Source: an uncultured Gammaproteobacteria bacterium
GTDB taxonomy: Bacteria; Patescibacteriota; Patescibacteriia; Magasanikbacterales; UBA922
Assembly (NCBI GenBank): GCA_964597575.1
Contig: CAZQXB010000001.1
Coordinates: 274,111-338,110 of the forward strand
DNA: 64,000 nt
Direction of reading: 5' to 3'
Below, one piece after another: positions 8,232 through 27,505 of the stretch. Below the pieces are notes generated by a model. That model was not told the DNA's origin and did not search any database. It was given only the letters and a program-made list of their open reading frames with translations. How positions within the stretch are numbered: position 1 is the first letter of the stretch; each line of letters opens with the position of its first letter. The translations under genes were made by a program, and so were the position numbers.

Positions 8232-9287
8232 ATGCGAACTGACGATTTCGATTTTTTTCTTCCAGATGAACGGATTGCACAATCACCAATTGAGCCGCGG
8301 GATCATTCAAAACTCATGGTGATTGATCGAAACAAGAAAACGATTGAACATCGGCAGTTTTTTGATCTCTTGTCGTACCTTCGTCCGGGTGATCTTCTTG
8401 TTTGGAATAATTCGAAGGTGTTTCGAGCGCGGTTGTTTGGTCGTTTATTTAGTCCATCCGGAGAACCTCTTCGTGAGCATGCAAAACCCATTGAAATTTT
8501 TCTCGTCCGTCCTACAGAAAATACTGGGGTTTGGCATGCTCTCGCAAAACCTGCCAAACATGTGAGTCATGGTATGCAAATTCGTTTTGCATCAGATTTT
8601 GCCTGTGAAGTGGTGGTAAAAAAAGATGATGGAACACTACTTGTTCAGTTTTCTTACAATGAAGCGACGGTTCGTGTGAAAGCAAATCAATATGGAGAAG
8701 TTCCTCTTCCCCCGTATATTAAAAAGGGCGTGAATGAACTTGTGGCATACCAAACGATCTATGCTCGGGAGGAGGGTTCGGTAGCAGCGCCTACCGCGGG
8801 TTTTCATTTCACCCCCGAACTTATTGAAAAAATAAAAGAGAAAGGTGTCTCGTTTGCAGAGGTGACTCTCCATGTAGGGCTAGGCACTTTTTTACCTGTA
8901 AAAAGTGAGCAGATTGAGGATCATACCATGCATAGTGAATGGGTGGAGCTGCCAGACGCAACAGTTCAGGCTATTCATACTACGAAAGCCAGCGGTGGAA
9001 GAGTTATCGCTGTCGGCACGACGACAGTCCGTACTTTAGAGGGGGTCGCGAAGTATGCTACTGGCCTTGCCGCCTATGCAGGGGATATTAATATGTTTAT
9101 TACCCCAGGATTTCATTTTCAGGTGGTCGATGCGCTTGTCACAAATTTTCATCTTCCAAAATCAACACTCCTTATGCTGGTGTCGGCATTTGCCAATGAC
9201 CGAGAATTTATCTTGCGTGCCTACGCTGAGGCGGTGGAAAAAGAATATCGATTTTTTAGTTTTGGCGATGCTATGTTTATTGTTTAG
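8232..9287 (+). CDS. queA: S-adenosylmethionine:tRNA ribosyltransferase-isomerase
   Basis: Typical QueA N-terminus (DFDFFLPDERIAQ) and VIAVGTTTVRTLE. Confidence 0.9.
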   Translation: MRTDDFDFFLPDERIAQSPIEPRDHSKLMVIDRNKKTIEHRQFFDLLSYLRPGDLLVWNNSKVFRARLFGRLFSPSGEPLREHAKPIEIFLVRPTENTGVWHALAKPAKHVSHGMQIRFASDFACEVVVKKDDGTLLVQFSYNEATVRVKANQYGEVPLPPYIKKGVNELVAYQTIYAREEGSVAAPTAGFHFTPELIEKIKEKGVSFAEVTLHVGLGTFLPVKSEQIEDHTMHSEWVELPDATVQAIHTTKASGGRVIAVGTTTVRTLEGVAKYATGLAAYAGDINMFITPGFHFQVVDALVTNFHLPKSTLLMLVSAFANDREFILRAYAEAVEKEYRFFSFGDAMFIV

Positions 9288-9290
9288 TTT

Positions 9291-9698
9291 ATGAACATCT
9301 TTTTTTCTTCGCTCGTGGCGTTACCGATATTTGTAGCCCTCGACTTTTTGTGGCTCGGCATTATTATGCGTTCTTTTTACGTGCGCGAACTTGGCCCCTT
9401 GGCGAGGCAGGGTATTCATTATCCAAGTGCTTTTGTAGTGTATGTGCTTATGGCGCTCAGTGTTGTGGTGTTTGTTTTGCCCCGGTTTTTCGGAATGCCG
9501 GTAACATTAAAAGTATTTGCGCTCGGTGCACTTCTCGGTTTTTTAATCTACGGAATTTACGATTTCACTAATTACGCCACTCTTGCTCATTGGTCATGGC
9601 GTTTTATGGTCGTTGATATTCTTTGGGGAGGGGTCGTGTATGGCGTAACAAGCATACTAACTCTCTCAATTCTTCGATGGTTAAAAATATTTTCCTAA
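9291..9698 (+). CDS. DUF2177-like small membrane protein
   Basis: Four predicted TM segments; ATGA overlap with the queA stop. Confidence 0.5.
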   Translation: MNIFFSSLVALPIFVALDFLWLGIIMRSFYVRELGPLARQGIHYPSAFVVYVLMALSVVVFVLPRFFGMPVTLKVFALGALLGFLIYGIYDFTNYATLAHWSWRFMVVDILWGGVVYGVTSILTLSILRWLKIFS

Positions 9699-9835
9699 AA
9701 GGTGATTTTTAACGTGAATTCTGTGCGATGGTAGTCAGGGGGCAGGGGAACGATAAGAAGCCACAAGGGTCACCAAATTAGGGTGGACAAGGAGATGGTG
9801 AAGATAAAGAAGAATAGTGACTCTCGCAAAAAATA

Positions 9836-9878
9836 ATGCAAAAAAAGAATGGTGCTTAGTTGCACCATTCTTTTTTTA
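9836..9878. terminator. Bidirectional terminator between convergent genes
   Basis: A-run, gaatggtgc-ttagt-gcaccattc hairpin, T-run. Confidence 0.6.
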
Positions 9879-11031
9879 GTTCCAAAAATCTTTTTTCTTT
9901 GATACTTTCTCGAATGTCTTTTGTCAGAGAAAGAAAGAAGTGGAGGTTGTGAATCGTTGCCAAACGGTAGGCGAGAAGTTCTTCAGCTCGAAAAAGATGG
10001 TGCAAATAACTCCTGGTAAATGTGCGGCAAGTGCTGCATGCACACGTTGGGTCAATAGGTTTTTTATCTTCACGAAATTCTGCGTTGGTAATAGAGAAGC
10101 GATATTTATTTTCTTTCGTCCCTCCAGTTTTTGGAGAAATAAATAAACTTCCATTCCGCGCCATCCGGCTTGGGGAAACACAGTCGAACATGTCTACTCC
10201 ATGTTCCACAACATCAAACAAATCACTTGGTGAAAAACCAAGGCCCATCGTGTAGCGTGGTTTATTTTCTGGAAGAAGTGGAGAGAGGTAGGAAAGAATA
10301 TCCCGTGTCGCTTCCATGTTGTATCCGATGGATTCTCCTCCTATGGCAATTCCGTCAAACGGCATGGCAGTAACAGCTTTTGCGCTCGCTTCGCGGAGTT
10401 CTTTGTGGTTTCCTCCTTGGATAATGCCGAATAAAAATTGACGATATCCGTGATACGACGTATTTTTTTGGTGTTCTTCAATACAACGCGCGGCCCAGCG
10501 GTGGGTGCGCTCCATGGCTTTTGTGGCGTAGGCGGTGTCGGCCGAATCCGGAGTGCATTCATCGAATGCCATAATAATATCTGCTCCTAATTTGTGCTGC
10601 ACCTCAATAGCGGATTCTGGAGTGAAGCGATGTTTGCTTCCGTCGATGTGTGAAGTAAATGTGACTCCGTCTTCGTCAATTGAAGTAAGTTTGTTTGCTC
10701 CTGCTTCTTTTTTTTCTTTTTGTGCACCTAAAGAAAAAACTTGAAATCCACCACTATCCGTTAAGATAGGCTTACCCCACTGCATGAATGTGTGCAATCC
10801 ACCGGCATTGCCAATGAGATCTTCTCCCGGGCGTAAATGGAGGTGATAGGTATTCGCTAAAATAATTTGCGCACCCAGTTCGTTTAGGTCGCGTGGGTCA
10901 AGGCTCTTTACGGTCGCCTGAGTTCCGACCGGCATAAATATGGGCGTTTCAATGTCGCCATGATCCGTATGAATAACCCCGGTGCGTGCACGAGTTTTGG
11001 AATCCTGTGAGGTGATTTCGAAAAAAGACAT
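9856..11031 (-). CDS. tgt: Queuine tRNA-ribosyltransferase
   Basis: MSFFEITSQD...ETPIFMPVGT start and the zinc-site region CxCxxC match Tgt. Start placed at the internal ATG 11031. Confidence 0.9.
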   Translation of the reverse strand: MSFFEITSQDSKTRARTGVIHTDHGDIETPIFMPVGTQATVKSLDPRDLNELGAQIILANTYHLHLRPGEDLIGNAGGLHTFMQWGKPILTDSGGFQVFSLGAQKEKKEAGANKLTSIDEDGVTFTSHIDGSKHRFTPESAIEVQHKLGADIIMAFDECTPDSADTAYATKAMERTHRWAARCIEEHQKNTSYHGYRQFLFGIIQGGNHKELREASAKAVTAMPFDGIAIGGESIGYNMEATRDILSYLSPLLPENKPRYTMGLGFSPSDLFDVVEHGVDMFDCVSPSRMARNGSLFISPKTGGTKENKYRFSITNAEFREDKKPIDPTCACSTCRTFTRSYLHHLFRAEELLAYRLATIHNLHFFLSLTKDIRESIKEKRFLELKKEWCN

Positions 11032-11098
11032 AGAAGAATAGTTGACCATAACAATACGGACTTTTGCGCCGCTTGGCAAGGTGGTCTACAATAGGGGT

Positions 11099-11905
11099 AT
11101 GTCAAAATCCACTCAAACACTCAATGCCGGTCTTATTGTAACGAGCATTCTTCTTTTGGGAGGAATTGTTTGGGTGTGGCCAAGCACGCAAGAATCGAGT
11201 GCCCCTGTAATAAAAACACCCTTTGTCGTTACGCGTCCCTCGACAACAACACCGCCTGCGCCGAGTACAAAACCATCTCCAGTGCCGCCTCCAACTCCGG
11301 AAACCCCATTTCCTGTACCCCCACCTACGGCTTCAATTAAAAATGAGGTACGTCTCGCGGTACCGTTTACTTCGCAAGCTCCAGAAAAAAATTGGGACGA
11401 GCCCTGGCAAAATGCCTGTGAAGAAGCAGCTCTTCTTATGCTTGATGCGTACTATAAGAAGTATCAGCTTTCACCCATTTTTGCTCGAGATGAGCTTCTC
11501 AAAGTTCTCGCCTATGAAGAAAATTTGGGATATGGGGGGAGTATTGATATGGAAAAAATAAAGAAGGTTGCGATTGAAACACTTCACTTAGACCGACACG
11601 GTACGTTAAAGATTATAGAGGATCCGGGTGTCGAAGATATTAAAGCCTATATTGCTGCGAAGAAACCAGTACTTGTGGTTGCTGACGGGAAGAAGTTGCC
11701 TAACCCTAATTTTCAAGGCGGTGGGCCGGCCTATCACGCTCTTATTATCACGGGGTATACGGAAGATACATTTATTACCAATGACCCAGGCACCCGACTC
11801 GGGAAAGATTTTGAATATCACATAGAAGATTTGATGGGTGCGATTCGTGACTGGAATGGGGGAAATGTAAAAACAGGAAGACGAGTTATTTTGGTGGTGG
11901 AGTAG
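11099..11905 (+). CDS. Membrane-anchored protein with Pro/Thr-rich linker and C39-like (Peptidase_C39_2) cysteine-peptidase domain
   Basis: Signal/TM region, then PxP-rich linker. Q..NW..PWQNAC then HALIITGY then NDPG follow the Gln/Cys/His/Asp order of the C39_2 family. Confidence 0.5.
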   Translation: MSKSTQTLNAGLIVTSILLLGGIVWVWPSTQESSAPVIKTPFVVTRPSTTTPPAPSTKPSPVPPPTPETPFPVPPPTASIKNEVRLAVPFTSQAPEKNWDEPWQNACEEAALLMLDAYYKKYQLSPIFARDELLKVLAYEENLGYGGSIDMEKIKKVAIETLHLDRHGTLKIIEDPGVEDIKAYIAAKKPVLVVADGKKLPNPNFQGGGPAYHALIITGYTEDTFITNDPGTRLGKDFEYHIEDLMGAIRDWNGGNVKTGRRVILVVE

Positions 11906-11915
11906 CAGTCCTAGC

Positions 11916-12084
11916 TTGACAGCTTTGATTCGTCGTGTTTTACTATTTTTATATATGAATACAAATCAGAAAAAATCTCTTTCAGTCCAGGCTTGGTGGG
12001 CCACGAATCGTCTGTCGTGGTGTTTCTGATTTGGTAAGATTATTTCTTAAAATCAAGCGCCCCGATAGTGGGGCGTTTCTATTT
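11916..12084 (+). promoter_or_regulatory. Candidate leader-peptide attenuator: promoter, 24-codon ORF with three Trp codons (two in tandem), intrinsic terminator
   Basis: TTGACA at 11916-11921. ORF 11955-12029 reads MNTNQKKSLSVQAWWATNRLSWCF. Hairpin cgcccc-gatagt-ggggcg plus T-run at 12058-12084. Stem aaatcagaaa/tttctgattt brackets the Trp codons. Confidence 0.35.
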
Positions 12085-12158
12085 GGTTTCGGCGAGAGGA
12101 GGAGGGTCTCGCTGGCACCAAATGATGAAATATCGTTTGCGTCCAGAGGGAGGTTCGA

Positions 12159-12926
12159 ATGTCGAACAAGGAAGCTTTTTTTGCTCTGCACACGTTCAAT
12201 CCGGCACTTGCCGGAGCCGTGGGCGCTGAGAGGGAGTTGTTTATCATCGAGAACGGAGTGCTGGTGCCGCGGGCTCCAGAAGTTCTGTCAGCCCTGTCTC
12301 ATGATCCTCGGTGGACGTACGAGCTGAGCGCTTGTCAGGTGGAATGCCGTACCACGCCAACGCATGATCCCTGGGAGTTGGTACGCGAACTGTGCGAACT
12401 TCGGCATCAAGTTGTCGGGGTCGCGAGACCGCTTGGGCTCGACGTGCTCTCTATGGAAGTGGCCCCGGCTACGATTCCACGAGAGGTATATCCCGACCCG
12501 AGATATGCGACCCTCTCAACCACCTTGCCTGAGGATCGGTTCCTTGCCGCGCTTCGTGTTGCCGGCACGCACGTTCATGTTGGTTGCGCGAATCTGGAAG
12601 AGGCTGTGAGAGTTCATGATGCACTCGTGGAGCATCTCGAGGAGCTTATCGCTCTCGGAAACTTTTCGGGCGGTGAGCGAATTCGTTTGTATGAGCGTGT
12701 CACGGCTCCGCATACCTATCCGCATTGTTACGGATCAGTAGATGCCTACTACGAAGATGCGGTTCGCTGCAATTTCACTTTGCAGCTTCGCAATAATTGG
12801 CATTTGATCCGCATTTCTCGGTACGGCACGGTTGAGGTAAGAGCGTTTGGTTCCCCTTTGTGTAACAGTAAAGTCGGGGACTGGGCTGCTCGTATCCAAG
12901 AGATCCGTGCCAACGCCATACGGTAG
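12159..12926 (+). CDS. Carboxylate-amine ligase of the YbdK/GCS2 (glutamate-cysteine ligase family 2) type; high-GC codon usage
   Basis: ERELFII..ELSACQVECRTTP, HVHVGC and GTVEVRAFGSP match GCS2 motifs. RBS agggagg. Shorter than E. coli YbdK at the C-terminus. Confidence 0.7.
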   Translation: MSNKEAFFALHTFNPALAGAVGAERELFIIENGVLVPRAPEVLSALSHDPRWTYELSACQVECRTTPTHDPWELVRELCELRHQVVGVARPLGLDVLSMEVAPATIPREVYPDPRYATLSTTLPEDRFLAALRVAGTHVHVGCANLEEAVRVHDALVEHLEELIALGNFSGGERIRLYERVTAPHTYPHCYGSVDAYYEDAVRCNFTLQLRNNWHLIRISRYGTVEVRAFGSPLCNSKVGDWAARIQEIRANAIR

Positions 12927-13013
12927 TACGAGAGGAGAAAAAATCTCAGACTCTCGTACTACCTCCCCCTCCAATGTATTTCCCTTTAAAATATGATACG
13001 ATAGAAGCGTTTT

Positions 13014-13766
13014 ATGAAACCCATTCTTCTTGTACAATTTCGTACAGACCTAACTGGCCCACATGAAATCTCTTGCTTTAGAAGTGAATTTGATGCGGTA
13101 GGCGCTTCTCTTGAAACAGTTAATGCTGTTACTGAAGCGCTTCCCTCTGATCTTTCTATCTATTCAGGAATTATCTTGGGAGGAAGTGGCGAATTTTATT
13201 TATCTGAAGGTCATGGTGCTGGGACATGGCAAGAAGCGACATTTGCATTGATCGAACGAGCAAGACAACAGTCTGTTCCCCTTTTGGGTATTTGTTTTGG
13301 TTTTCAACTTCTAGGGATGGCGTATGGAGCAACTATCGTGCGGAATGAAAGTATGAGGGAAACCGGTACTTTTCTCGTTACGCAATATAAAGAAGGGGCG
13401 AGTGATGAGCTTTTGTCTTTGGCACCAGAAACATTCTTAGCGCAATTTGCTCACAAAGATTCTTTGATTAATTTTCCACCCTCGGTCATTGTACTTGCTA
13501 AATCAGAACGTGTTGCAGTTGAGGCATTTCGTGTGAGGGGTAGGGATCAGTGGGGCTTCTTGTTCCATCCGGAGTTAAATAAAAAACGTATGAGCGAACG
13601 ATTGTCCTTACTCCCAAGTTATGCTGGTGGTAATTCAGTTGATGCTCTTTTAGAGTCTTTTCACGATACCCCGGCTGCCACCGATCTTCTTCATGCTTTT
13701 ATTAAGTATGCCCAGAATCGAAATGGAAGTATTTCCCTCTCTCAAGAGGAAGCCGTTACGGTATGA
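13014..13766 (+). CDS. Class-I glutamine amidotransferase domain protein (GMP-synthase-like GATase / C26-type)
   Basis: Catalytic Cys motif LLGICFGFQLL and FHPE histidine motif. Confidence 0.75.
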   Translation: MKPILLVQFRTDLTGPHEISCFRSEFDAVGASLETVNAVTEALPSDLSIYSGIILGGSGEFYLSEGHGAGTWQEATFALIERARQQSVPLLGICFGFQLLGMAYGATIVRNESMRETGTFLVTQYKEGASDELLSLAPETFLAQFAHKDSLINFPPSVIVLAKSERVAVEAFRVRGRDQWGFLFHPELNKKRMSERLSLLPSYAGGNSVDALLESFHDTPAATDLLHAFIKYAQNRNGSISLSQEEAVTV

Positions 13767-15853
13767 TTGATTTTGCCAAAGAGCTTAATAGTGAACAGTT
13801 GGCCGTCGTAGAACACGGTGATGGCCCGTGTTTGGTTTTGGCAGGCGCTGGCAGTGGAAAAACCAGAACGATTACGTACCGCGTGGCGTACTTACTTCAA
13901 AACGGTGTTCTTCCTGAAGAAATTTTACTTGTCACATTTACGAATAAAGCCGCGAGAGAAATGACCAGTCGTGTGGAAATGCTCACCAACATGACGAAGC
14001 GTCTTCCCTGGTCAGGAACGTTTCACCATATTGGATTTCGGTTACTCAAACAGTACGCAGCTCTTTTGGGGTATCAACCGAATTTTACGATTCTCGATAG
14101 TGAAGATAGTTTAGACTTACTGAAACTCTGTTTAAAGTACGAAGGAATTGAGCGCAAAGATAAACATTTTCCATCTCCCCAAGTACTTCATGGTCTTATT
14201 AGTTTTGCGCGGAATGCTGAAACCACGCTTGAACACGTGCTTGATGCTAAACATCCACAATGGCTTTCTATTTCCGAAACACTGGTTCGCGTAGCCGAAA
14301 GTTATGAACAAAGAAAACGAAAAGCGAATGCGATGGATTTTGACGATCTCCTCACGAACACCTATTTGCTTCTGTTAAAAAACGAACGTGTACGGGAAAA
14401 GTTTGCCACACAGTTTCGCTATGTGCTCGTTGACGAGTATCAGGATACGAATAAAATCCAAGCTTCAATTGTGCGGCTTTTTTCATCACACCACAAAAAT
14501 TTACTTGTAGTAGGGGATGATGCGCAGAGTATCTACTCATTCCGTGCCGCAGATATTGCGAACATCTTAGATTTTTCTAAAACATTTCCGGAAGCGCAGG
14601 TATTTCGTTTGGAAACAAATTATCGTTCTACTCCAAATATTTTGTCGCTCGCAAATGAGGTGATTGCGAATAACATAAAGCAGCACAGAAAAACACTCAA
14701 AAGTGTTTTGCCGGAATTTGCTCGACCAGAAGTACATGCCTTTACCGATGCGCGTGAGGAGGCGGAATTTGTGGTAAGTCGAATCCAAGAATTACAGGAA
14801 GAAGGCGTACCCCTTCAGGAAATGGCAGTATTATTTCGCGCAGCATTTCATTCCCAAGCGATCGAAATGGAGTTAACCAAACGGGGTATTCCGTACGACT
14901 ACCGTGGTGGAACGCGCTTTTTCGAGCGCGCACACGTGAAAGATGTGTTAGCGTACCTTCGTATTTTCCATAATTCTAAAGACACGATTGCGTGGAGTCG
15001 TGTTCTTGCTATGCAATCGGGAATTGGTCCCGCAGCCATACAGAAAATTCTTCAAGTGCTCGAGATGTTCTCAACACCTCCTACATTTTTTGATATCCGT
15101 CATTTGGGCGCAGAACTTCCTGCGCGAGCACAGCTCGGGTGGAACGATGTGCTCAAAGCCTGGGAGGCTGTTGAGGCGACGAAGACAGAAGCCGGAGCAG
15201 TACTTCCGGGTGATGCTATCTGGGCGATTTTAGAAAGCGTCTATCGGACGTATGCAGAACATGAATTTCCGGACGCTCGGGAGCGATTGCAAGATATTGA
15301 GCAGTTAGCGAACTTTGCAGAGGCGGCAAATAAACGGGAAGAGGATCAATTGAAAGCACTCGAAATATTTTTGGCGGAAGCAAGTTTACAAGAAAGTTTT
15401 ACTGCCGCTCAGGCTCGTAAAACTTTGGATGCAGAAGAAAAGCTCACTCTCTCGACTATCCATCAGGCAAAAGGCTTAGAGTGGGAAGCGGTATTCGTGG
15501 TGCATCTTGCAGCTGGGCAATTTCCTTCTGACCGATCGCTCAAAACAGATCAGGGGCTCGAAGAAGAGCGACGGCTTTTTTATGTGGCGGTCACCCGGGC
15601 CAAAAAACATTTGGCCATGTCGTATCCGCTTGTTGGTGGCTTTGATACGACCCTTCAAGGCCCCAGTCTCTTTTTAGAGGAAATTGACCGTGAGTTATAT
15701 GATGATCACGGGGTGCGCTCGATCGCACCACTTACCGCATTTCGAGATTTAGCAGACCCTATAGAGGGGATTACCTACGAAGCGGAAGATGAACCGTTTT
15801 CTACCAAAAAGAAGCGCCCAACCTCATTTTTGTCGAGTATTGATGATCTTTGA
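13763..15853 (+). CDS. ATP-dependent DNA helicase UvrD/PcrA family
   Basis: Walker A AGAGSGKTRTI, VDEYQDTN, and C-terminal helicase motifs. Confidence 0.9.
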   Translation: MIDFAKELNSEQLAVVEHGDGPCLVLAGAGSGKTRTITYRVAYLLQNGVLPEEILLVTFTNKAAREMTSRVEMLTNMTKRLPWSGTFHHIGFRLLKQYAALLGYQPNFTILDSEDSLDLLKLCLKYEGIERKDKHFPSPQVLHGLISFARNAETTLEHVLDAKHPQWLSISETLVRVAESYEQRKRKANAMDFDDLLTNTYLLLLKNERVREKFATQFRYVLVDEYQDTNKIQASIVRLFSSHHKNLLVVGDDAQSIYSFRAADIANILDFSKTFPEAQVFRLETNYRSTPNILSLANEVIANNIKQHRKTLKSVLPEFARPEVHAFTDAREEAEFVVSRIQELQEEGVPLQEMAVLFRAAFHSQAIEMELTKRGIPYDYRGGTRFFERAHVKDVLAYLRIFHNSKDTIAWSRVLAMQSGIGPAAIQKILQVLEMFSTPPTFFDIRHLGAELPARAQLGWNDVLKAWEAVEATKTEAGAVLPGDAIWAILESVYRTYAEHEFPDARERLQDIEQLANFAEAANKREEDQLKALEIFLAEASLQESFTAAQARKTLDAEEKLTLSTIHQAKGLEWEAVFVVHLAAGQFPSDRSLKTDQGLEEERRLFYVAVTRAKKHLAMSYPLVGGFDTTLQGPSLFLEEIDRELYDDHGVRSIAPLTAFRDLADPIEGITYEAEDEPFSTKKKRPTSFLSSIDDL

Positions 15854-16793: not shown

Positions 16794-16826
16794 GCCACCC
16801 CGAGAAATCGGGGTGGTTTCTTTTGG
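16794..16826 (+). terminator. Rho-independent terminator
   Basis: gccacccc-gagaaatc-ggggtggt hairpin then ttcttttgg. Confidence 0.6.
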
Positions 16827-16994
16827 GAAGGTTTTCTAAAAAAGTTTGTGGGTAGCACTTAGCTGAAGAAGGGGATCATCTAAGTGCTACCGGACCTTAT
16901 GAGAGGGATACAAAGTTTGAACGGCAATGGCTGTTCAGCTCCGGTGCACAAACGGCAACGCAAACAATTCACCTCAACGACAAGGAGAAGAGTC

Positions 16995-17183
16995 ATGCGC
17001 ACCCAATTCGAGATCGATCCTGATGCGCCCAAGCCAGATCAAGATCGGGCCGCTCAGCTGCTGAGCTCTCTCGGCTCCTCCGGGATGGAGCGACGCCTCT
17101 TGGCACGGGATCTGCCGGAGGGAATCGTCGCCATCAGTGATGGGGACGAGATTCGTCGGGAGGATCTTCTTCGGGAGAAGTGA
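16995..17183 (+). CDS. Small acidic hypothetical protein (62 aa), high-GC codon usage
   Basis: RBS aaggag 8 nt upstream; GC3-rich codons unlike neighbouring genes. Confidence 0.3.
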   Translation: MRTQFEIDPDAPKPDQDRAAQLLSSLGSSGMERRLLARDLPEGIVAISDGDEIRREDLLREK

Positions 17184-17199
17184 TCAAGGAGGGCGCAGG

Positions 17200-17538
17200 G
17201 TGCTTCCTGCGGATCGGTCTCGTGCCATGCACGCGACAGGTCGGAAGAGCAATTGCGTTGCCTTCCCCAACGACATTCGGACCACGGTCCGGTTGTTGTG
17301 CGGGAAAGAAACAATTTTACCAAAGAGAGAGGGGTATCGCTTGAAAAGTGGTACTGGTAAGGTAAAGAGGGGTGATAGGCGGATGACGCCTGCTGATCAC
17401 GACGAGCTCAGCCTCATGAGAGCGGCTCGCGAGGAGGCTATGAAGCGGCCAGAGGCTTCTAGAGTAGTGCGGCATCTGGAGGATGCGATCAAGATGAAGG
17501 AGGAGTGGATCAATGGACAACGGGGAAGCAAACCCTAG
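17200..17538 (+). CDS. Small basic hypothetical protein, high-GC (GTG start after aaggaggg; alternatively a 51-aa product from ATG 17383)
   Basis: RBS followed by an ORF with GC3-rich codons. Confidence 0.25.
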   Translation: MLPADRSRAMHATGRKSNCVAFPNDIRTTVRLLCGKETILPKREGYRLKSGTGKVKRGDRRMTPADHDELSLMRAAREEAMKRPEASRVVRHLEDAIKMKEEWINGQRGSKP

Positions 17539-17659
17539 CTTCGGAGGAACCATCAGTCTTCACGAGCTCGTGAATCCGGGTCAGATCGACCAGAAGAACG
17601 AGCAGTCGGTCGATGAGGTTCCGGCACCCGCGGAAGAAGACACCGCGACGGCCACCTAG
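17513..17659 (+). CDS. Small acidic hypothetical protein (48 aa), high-GC
   Basis: RBS aggagg then ATG; ends TAG; terminator hairpin downstream. Confidence 0.25.
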   Translation: MDNGEANPSFGGTISLHELVNPGQIDQKNEQSVDEVPAPAEEDTATAT

Positions 17660-17690
17660 ATGGCCACACACCCATCACAGCTTGTCTGTG

Positions 17691-17730
17691 GGCCCCGGCT
17701 ATCGCACCTTGCGAGACGCCGGGCTTTTTC
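17691..17730 (+). terminator. Terminator after the GC-rich small-ORF cluster
   Basis: cccggc...gccggg stem followed by ctttttc. Confidence 0.45.
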
Positions 17731-18003
17731 ATTAAAAAAGGGTTTATTTATCCACACTTGCCAGCCTTTTTTCGTGGCGGTATAGTACCTATGATCTTGT
17801 CTATGGTGGATCGAAATTCATATTCTACAATAGATTCTTCTAGGGAAACCTATATTGCCTGTGCCCTTGGGCGCTCGCTGCGGTTACCCACCTACATCGT
17901 AGGGATAGAGAATCTCGTCTGCCTAGATGAGGTCACGAAAGCCAACCACCCCAAAAGGGTTGTTTTTTGTTTTTCTTTATGCTAGAGTACGTGCACAAAA
18001 AAT

Positions 18004-25971: not shown

Positions 25972-27505
<1,534 letters not shown>

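Follow-up and report, generated by a model that had tools for sequence, protein, structure and literature searches.

Can an organism of the Patescibacteria, which have been reported to lack amino-acid biosynthesis (PMC11665869), use the supply of tryptophan (Trp) as a regulatory signal, and which gene would be placed under such a control? The question is raised by a 253-nucleotide (nt) intergenic region in a 64,000-nt stretch of contig CAZQXB010000001.1 (assembly GCA_964597575.1, positions 274,111 to 338,110), the whole of which is herein called the window. In this region, a short open reading frame (ORF) with tandem Trp codons and an intrinsic terminator precede the gene of a ligase related to GCS2 and YbdK proteins. 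We consider it likely, with a probability of roughly 80%, that positions 11955-12089 of the window constitute a ribosome-mediated transcription attenuator of the trpL type, which senses charged tRNA-Trp and thereby controls the ligase gene. A preliminary description of the locus had already proposed a ribosome-stalling attenuator, and this architecture is now supported by a competing antiterminator, by folds computed under simulated ribosome masking, and by Trp-specific devices at orthologous loci of other species. Regulation in ultrasmall patescibacterial symbionts has been described as largely unexplored (PMC11665869). All features lie on the plus strand unless stated otherwise.

A Trp-codon leader with alternative RNA structures

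The predicted leader promoter follows the gene of a Peptidase_C39_2-like protein, as previously noted, and comprises a -35 hexamer that is a perfect match (TTGACA, 11916-11921) and, at a spacing of 17 nt, an extended -10 element TG-n-TTTACT (11936-11944; TG at 11936-37, TTTACT at 11939-44). TTTACT is weak as a -10 hexamer (4/6), and for that reason a consensus promoter scan did not list this promoter. From the -10 element to the leader ATG there are 10 nt, which predicts a 5' untranslated region of about 3 nt and thus a near-leaderless transcript, if the transcription start has been placed correctly.

The leader ORF (11955-12029) begins with the ATG at 11955-57, comprises 24 codons for the peptide MNTNQKKSLSVQAWWATNRLSWCF, and ends with a TGA at 12027-29. 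The preliminary description had recognized this ORF with its UGG UGG and a third UGG, and had implied a position that was off by 1 nt. There is no Shine-Dalgarno (SD) sequence before the ATG, and the ORF is probably translated from the (near-)leaderless transcript. The tandem UGG UGG (W14 and W15, 11994-11999) is the proposed sensing site, and the third UGG (W22, 12018-12020) lies within the 3' arm of hairpin A described below and within the antiterminator strand. With UGG UGG and one further UGG in 24 codons, the ORF shows the codon enrichment that characterizes leader peptides.

Several pairings compete in the leader RNA. The minimum-energy fold of the free RNA (-41.5 kcal/mol, z -3.6) combines hairpin A, the terminator and a further small hairpin with a long-range stem (11962-72/12022-32). 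In this stem, segment 1a (11962-11972) supplies the 5' strand and would act as an anti-antiterminator by pairing with 12022-12032, and the stem includes the exactly complementary 10-mers AAATCAGAAA (11963-72) and TTTCTGATTT (12023-32), whose pairing the preliminary description had correctly predicted. In hairpin A (12000-12021), GCCACGA pairs with UCGUGGU (12000-06/12015-21), and the 5' arm of this hairpin, segment 1b, lies directly 3' of the tandem Trp codons. The intrinsic terminator (12055-12089, -15.9 kcal/mol) has a GC-rich 9-bp stem (12055-63/12070-78) with the loop GAUAGU, holds the already described core CGCCCC-GATAGT-GGGGCG, and continues into UUUCUAUUUGGUUU, a U-rich but interrupted tract.

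The preliminary description had suggested folding the RNA in search of an antiterminator that excludes the terminator, and such a structure indeed exists: segment 2 (12012-12032, CUGUCG.GGUGUU..UGAUUU) can pair with segment 3 (12050-12068, AAAUCA AGCGCC. CGAUAG), which holds the 5' arm and the loop of the terminator, so that both structures are mutually exclusive. The segment 12009-12069 folds at -21.7 kcal/mol with a z-score of -5.5 (z -5.53), and none of the shuffled sequences (0/200) folded as well. When all positions up to 12008 are masked, which mimics a ribosome whose A site is occupied by UGG14 or UGG15, the antiterminator is the minimum-energy fold of 12007-12086 (-22.7 kcal/mol, compared with -15.9 kcal/mol for the terminator), and when the mask extends to 13 nt beyond the stop codon, representing a ribosome at the stop, the terminator is restored. 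In these simulations, 0/9 terminator pairs form with the ribosome stalled at W14/15, and 8/9 with the ribosome at the stop codon.

The mechanism that we propose is as follows. A few nt upstream of the leader ATG (11955), transcription would begin, and the 24 codons would be translated while RNA polymerase proceeds, which presupposes a coupling of transcription and translation. If Trp-tRNA is plentiful, the ribosome would reach the stop codon and cover segment 2, the terminator stem (12055-78) would form, and transcription would stop before the ligase gene. The terminator would likewise form without any translation, as segments 1a and 1b would then hold segment 2. If Trp-tRNA is scarce, the ribosome would stall when UGG14 or UGG15 enters the A site and would open hairpin A by melting its 5' arm, and the freed segment 2 could pair with the emerging positions 12050-68, thereby using up the 5' arm of the terminator and permitting read-through into the ligase gene and probably also into the glutamine amidotransferase (GATase) gene that follows. 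W22 is probably not a regulatory sensor but a by-product of the hairpin A structure, because in the masking model a ribosome stalled there would cover segment 2, leave the terminator intact and hence favor termination.

Orthologous ligase genes are under Trp-linked control by three kinds of devices

As the window has no close relative (the closest ligase homologue is 46% identical), support had to be drawn from orthologous loci, and we therefore compared the regions 5' of the ligase gene in 80 orthologous loci, one per species. The preliminary description had proposed to look for the leader ORF in related genomes; the exact leader is not conserved, but analogous Trp leaders are found in about 26 species, and T-boxes with a UGG specifier in 33.

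The T-boxes, a type of element whose mechanism has been described (PMC2494555), are represented by the core GGUGG(C/U)ACC(G/A)CG followed by a terminator at 33 loci. Such cores were found in 24 ligase-upstream regions and in 0 controls (p = 2e-17). The T-box of locus L025 is the only one of the 33 that exceeds the Rfam gathering score (95.6 vs 93 bits), the T-boxes other than L025 have a short Stem I, and standard annotation would miss all but L025 since they remain below that score. An alignment of Stem I (n=27) shows compensatory changes at 10/13 pairs. Its 3' bulge reads (A/G)(U/C/A)UGG followed by a purine, with UGG being invariant, and in the canonical, long Stem I of L004 and L025 the sequence is GAAAU-UGG-A. 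Because the invariant UGG sits at the position of the specifier codon, the ligase T-boxes of Patescibacteria are, as judged from their sequences, sensors of tRNA-Trp. About 30 of these leaders (L027, L042, L047-L082; e.g. L061:3705-3953) share a very short Stem I with the 3' bulge ..UGGG.., which is followed by Stem II and a IIA/B-like region.

At about 26 loci, a short ORF starting with ATG carries Trp codons 9-14 codons into its sequence and is followed by a terminator. The Trp patterns are WW, WWW, WxW or Y/F-W-F, as exemplified by MNKLVSANLNHWWWTSSDARS (L008), MNQFRVNNSWWKARLSG (L033), ...PNLWWCARNLP (L038), ...FVYWWHIM... (L044), and ...NNFWWTWQNL (L052), and only the Trp codons and their position are common to all of these peptides. 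Such ORFs were found in 14/33 ligase-upstream regions, compared with 5/178 control intergenic regions of the same loci (Fisher p = 2e-9). In masking simulations with 21 of the relatives' leaders, 18 lose the terminator when the mask reaches the Trp codon, and 20 regain it when the mask reaches the stop codon. One class of 16 leaders can be aligned, and in this class UGG-UUU is invariant and preceded by UAU or UUU (Y/F-W-F); the RNAalifold consensus of the class is the antiterminator, with compensatory changes at 8/22 pairs. About 16/23 of the relatives' leaders resemble the window in lacking an SD sequence and in having a promoter of the type TTGAC(A/G/C)-17-TAnnnT, which ends about 8-13 nt ahead of the ATG. 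The terminator of the Y/F-W-F class, CCUCUUCCUCGGAAGAGG, is almost invariant across distant lineages (L003, L006, L019, L029, L040, L075 and others), and just 3' of it there is a conserved CUUCCG that is complementary to CGGAAG of the terminator, which suggests an additional alternative pairing in these leaders.

The third device is a protein. An ORF of the Trp_repressor family adjoins the ligase gene in the Uhrbacteria loci L007 (3610-3984) and L016 (3602-3949), with Pfam E-values of about 1e-20, and likewise in L026, there by sequence only, which makes three loci in total. These TrpR-family ORFs abut the ligase gene or overlap it by about 10 nt and take the place of the RNA leader, and a further one may be present at L018:3609-3788. 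In addition, trpS (TIGR00233, 320 bits) is located within about 4 kb of the ligase gene at 28 loci. T-boxes, TrpR, and stalling attenuators each turn genes on when Trp or charged tRNA-Trp is low. The Trp logic is thus consistent across the devices, and the same direction of control is predicted for the attenuator of the window.

Comparison with known Trp-responsive systems

By its mechanistic class, the window leader is well supported as a leader-peptide attenuator, since the features of this class that a sequence can reveal are present; translation of the SD-less ORF and a response in vivo are predictions that follow from the assignment. Ribosome stalling at the Trp codons of Escherichia coli trpL results in read-through. 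The window leader shares with trpL a short leader ORF that has two Trp codons in a row, the 1:2/2:3/3:4 pairing logic, the intrinsic terminator, and the predicted consequence of stalling, i.e. read-through. It differs by lacking a match in sequence or in Rfam, by the missing SD sequence and the near-leaderless start, and by a segment 1 that is split in two. Moreover, the target is a YbdK-like ligase instead of trpE, and the host is a Patescibacterium. No Rfam family, Trp_leader included, was found in the leader, neither in a scan of 9000-15000 at E <= 10 nor in a scan of the whole window at gathering scores.

A use of both RNA devices has precedent in Bacillus subtilis, where the rtpA-ycbK (anti-TRAP) leader reportedly senses the charging of tRNA-Trp by a Trp-specifier T-box together with a short leader peptide with consecutive Trp codons, as is said to have been described by Sarsero, Merino and Yanofsky in PNAS in 2000 (cited as B34 in PMC2494555); the targets there are said not to be biosynthetic enzymes. 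The loci of Patescibacteria likewise use both kinds of devices for one gene family. In B. subtilis, however, the two devices share a transcript and the effect of the leader peptide is on translation, whereas a given species of Patescibacteria has either a T-box or a leader, and it is a terminator that the leader governs. The T-boxes (RF00230, Trp specifier) occupy the same slot 5' of the orthologous ligase in 33 species and respond to the same signal, uncharged tRNA-Trp, but the window leader would sense this signal via translation and not by direct tRNA binding.

With the alignable Y/F-W-F leaders of its relatives, here termed the R1 class, the window leader has in common the slot, the spacing from promoter to ATG, the position of W (about codon 10-14), and the switch between antiterminator and terminator. 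Also the peptides are alike in length and ending (...YWFT..LSRGRCF in L045/L022 vs ...AWWATNRLSWCF in the window). The differences are that terminator and antiterminator are unrelated to CCUCUUCCUCGGAAGAGG, that WW takes the place of Y/F-W-F, and that there is an extra 1:2 anti-antiterminator.

A hidden T-box was considered for the window itself, as TTGGTGGGCC, close to the Trp codons, is similar to TTGGGCC, the bulge of Stem I, and as the TGGCACC at 12113 is similar to the T-box bulge. This reading was rejected: TGGCACC occurs 9 times, with 6.2 occurrences expected, lies downstream of the terminator, and is an arm of a 17-bp hairpin. The window has no T-box match in Rfam at E <= 10, and no core (GGUGGNACCGCG) upstream of the terminator. 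The sequence TATTTGGTTT at 12080-89 resembles the conserved UAUUGGUUU of the relatives' leaders, but it was rejected as well, as a start codon is missing from its frame and as it forms the opposite arm of this 17-bp hairpin.

The regulated ligase and its gene neighborhood

The presumably controlled gene (12146-12926 with its SD sequence) begins with the SD GAGGGAGG (12146-53) and the ATG at 12159, both in agreement with the preliminary description, and encodes a short carboxylate-amine ligase of 255 aa (12159-12926). It matches Pfam GCS2 with an E-value of 1.6e-12 and 47.8 bits (cut-off 21), but reaches only 28-64 bits with all NCBIfam YbdK/GshA models, whose cut-offs are 176-437, and it is shorter than the full-length proteins of about 370 aa. 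By its sequence, it represents a short YbdK-like subfamily of its own. The solved structures that are nearest by sequence are those of the YbdK type, 1R8G and 1TT4, and Glu, His and Arg columns of the catalytic type are invariant among 27 members.

The ligase gene had been described as GC-rich and as foreign-looking. Its GC content is indeed high (0.555 vs 0.46 in the window) and 10 points above that of its flanks, and the neighboring C39-like gene has a similar GC content at third codon positions. A foreign origin is not supported nevertheless: the family is typical of the phylum, with nearly all named proteins among the 267 homologues coming from Patescibacteria or Parcubacteria, and the orthologues are generally GC-richer than their flanks, by 3.8 points on average (81 loci measured). 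Look-ups of the exact ligase protein returned the same organism only (Logan assemblies SRR13355620/22). A second rise in GC content at 16800-17800 (0.55-0.58 vs about 0.44), just before a tRNA-Pro gene, indicates that the heterogeneity is not unique to the ligase gene. The window further contains a complete bacterial 16S rRNA gene at 25972-27504 (Rfam, 1437 bits).

Between the terminator and the SD sequence of the ligase gene there is a second, 17-bp hairpin (12080-12124, z -2.8), whose loop GGAGGAGGG is purine-rich and SD-like and whose 5' arm overlaps the U-tract of the terminator. This hairpin could be an mRNA stabilizer, a processing site or a second control element. At the other end of the gene, a perfect 12-bp hairpin (12923-12962, GTAGTACGAGAG...CTCTCGTACTAC) begins inside the ligase stop codon and is followed by a C/T-rich stretch without a clean U-run; it may separate or modulate the expression of the next gene, which has no obvious SD sequence.

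This next gene (13014-13766) encodes a class-I GATase/Peptidase C26-like protein, is a recurrent neighbor of the ligase gene, and is possibly co-transcribed with it. The preliminary description had taken it for an amidotransferase of the TrpG fold; the class-I GATase assignment holds, but the protein resembles Peptidase C26 and generic class-I amidotransferases as much as TrpG. Across the loci, the neighbor of the ligase is nearly always an amide hydrolase or a further ligase, namely an AstE/AspA-like deacylase (31 loci), a GATase/Peptidase C26 protein (17 loci, including the window), a larger GCS2 protein (14 loci) or a GGCT/AIG2-like protein (5 loci). At 10 loci, often adjoining trpS, it is a fusion of a chorismate mutase domain and a methyltransferase. 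This fusion of a type II chorismate mutase with an S-adenosylmethionine-dependent methyltransferase, found among others in L042, L051, L054, L060, L062, L063, L071, L076 and L078 (e.g. L078:5214-6377), is odd for organisms that are thought to have no aromatic amino-acid biosynthesis. A search of the window for trpS, TrpR and the other partner genes found none.

The wider surroundings consist of a queue of genes for malic enzyme, queA, DUF2177, tgt (minus strand) and the C39-like protein upstream of the intergenic region, and, after the ligase and GATase genes, a gene for a UvrD-family helicase, which we take to be PcrA, and ndk. The C39-like protein matches Peptidase_C39_2 (E 4.5e-10), has an N-terminal membrane/Pro-rich region, and its gene ends with the TAG at 11903-05. 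The mechanically determined ORF starts at TTG 11042 and overlaps the divergent tgt ORF (9856-11079); the gene call of the public assembly (ATG 11099, 268 aa) is judged the more plausible start. In none of the other 80 loci is a C39-like gene linked to the ligase gene, and the leader travels with the ligase and not with the C39-like gene.

Alternative explanations and points that weigh against an attenuator

What alternatives exist for a trpL-type attenuator? One would be a chance combination, in which the ORF has no meaning and the hairpin serves the C39-like gene as a terminator or insulator. The preliminary description had expected the Trp frequency to indicate how improbable the ORF is, and this expectation was not borne out: Trp accounts for 1.08% of the residues and none of the 49 long ORFs of the window contains WW, yet among its 616 short ATG ORFs, 9 contain WW and 10 contain at least three W, so that such short ORFs do arise by chance. 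The weak -10 element and the fact that the hairpin also reads as a minus-strand terminator fit to this explanation. On the other hand, the hairpin is located 150 nt past the stop codon of the C39-like gene with the perfect -35 hexamer in between, and is hence not owned by that gene alone, which is moreover absent from all other loci; the z-score of the antiterminator, the position of the Trp codons exactly in front of segment 1b, and the enrichment of leaders and T-boxes 5' of the orthologues likewise argue against coincidence, which we regard as very unlikely. It is also unlikely, if not quite to the same extent, that the region is an independent small transcription unit for a small RNA of about 125 nt or a micro-protein of 24 aa, with the ligase gene having its own promoter. 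A promoter and a terminator that bracket about 130 nt are in principle a signature of small RNA genes too, the leader fold is stable, and there is a further hairpin with 80 nt between the terminator and the ligase gene. However, no Rfam family matches, no promoter-like site was found between terminator and ligase gene, and the peptides of the relatives share just the Trp codons and their position. In a plain small RNA gene, the strong antiterminator that overlaps the terminator would have no role, and the T-boxes in the same slot of 33 species would remain unexplained.

Two further explanations ascribe a function to the peptide itself. TnaC, which has 24 residues with an essential Trp, contains K-W-F-N with an Asp at W+4, and ends with a Pro that immediately precedes the stop codon. 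The leader of the window has the same length, and the conserved W-F-(T/I/S)-N of the relatives resembles K-W-F-N, which could point to a nascent-peptide sensor like TnaC or some other arrest peptide that responds to Trp, with induction at high Trp. Such a sensor appears quite improbable, as the window peptide ends with ...SWCF* and has neither an Asp at W+4 nor a terminal Pro, as the relatives differ widely in how far W is from the stop codon, and as the RNA structures give read-through upon stalling at W and not at the stop codon; the control of orthologues by T-boxes and TrpR also implies induction at low Trp. Least of all would we expect the ORF to be the precursor of a ribosomally synthesized and post-translationally modified peptide or bacteriocin that is processed by the C39-like peptidase and modified by ligase and amidotransferase. 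The arrangement of a small ORF between a C39-family peptidase gene and genes of an ATP-dependent amide ligase and a GATase is reminiscent of such systems, but the peptidase belongs to Peptidase_C39_2 and is not the C39 domain of an ABC transporter, its linkage to the ligase is missing at the other 80 loci, and the peptide has no double-glycine motif. In addition, the peptides are not conserved except for Trp, and T-boxes replace the ORF in 33 species.

Several observations nevertheless weigh against the attenuator that we prefer. As there is no SD sequence and the -10 element is weak, leader translation relies on a leaderless or A/U-rich initiation that is only predicted for this phylum. The leader ORF alone is not beyond chance, since WW or three W in 24 codons are not significant after multiple testing. 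The covariance model R1, built from the 16 Y/F-W-F leaders of relatives, has no match at 11955-12089 and its best matches elsewhere in the window have E-values of 0.65-0.97; the window leader, judged by this search, is analogous to that class or too diverged from it, and not a detectable homologue. With no close relatives at hand, the window leader itself is without covariation support. Mechanistically, the terminator state is favored (-31.4 kcal/mol) if the pairing of segment 1a with 12022-32 is retained, and as segment 1a in the model lies just behind the footprint of the stalled ribosome, antitermination would then require that this pairing be blocked sterically or that a second ribosome be queued behind the first. 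The U-tract of the terminator is interrupted, and the regulated ligase has no demonstrated tie to Trp metabolism.

Significance

The mechanism of the attenuator proposed here is classical and of an already known kind, and the interesting part is that an uncharacterized ligase would be regulated by Trp. The searchable literature yielded no description of leader-peptide attenuators or T-boxes in Patescibacteria or the candidate phyla radiation (CPR), and likewise nothing relevant on YbdK in CPR. The apparently leaderless or near-leaderless translated leaders are unusual for classical attenuators. As the field is short of genetic tools (PMC11665869), the switch could serve as a native inducible element for the genetics of Patescibacteria.

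For the biology of these organisms, it matters that three independent Trp-sensing devices converge on one uncharacterized enzyme family, often beside trpS. Similar to T-box-guided annotation (PMC2494555), this gives a functional lead: the enzymes should raise the supply of Trp or of charged tRNA-Trp in organisms presumed to be incapable of amino-acid synthesis. The pair of ligase and hydrolase may, with low confidence and by analogy only, resemble gamma-glutamyl "protecting-group" pathways and raise the Trp supply in such a way. It is conceivable, although we would not yet favor it, that the ligase and its variable amide-hydrolase partner, be it a class-I GATase/Peptidase C26, an AstE/AspA-like deacylase or a gamma-glutamyl-cyclotransferase-like protein, form an unrecognized module for Trp supply or salvage. 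This module would then be the principal regulon of Patescibacteria that responds to tRNA-Trp charging, with its sensor having been swapped repeatedly between a Trp-codon leader peptide, a TrpR-family repressor, and a Trp T-box whose Stem I is in many cases ultrashort and below the Rfam threshold.

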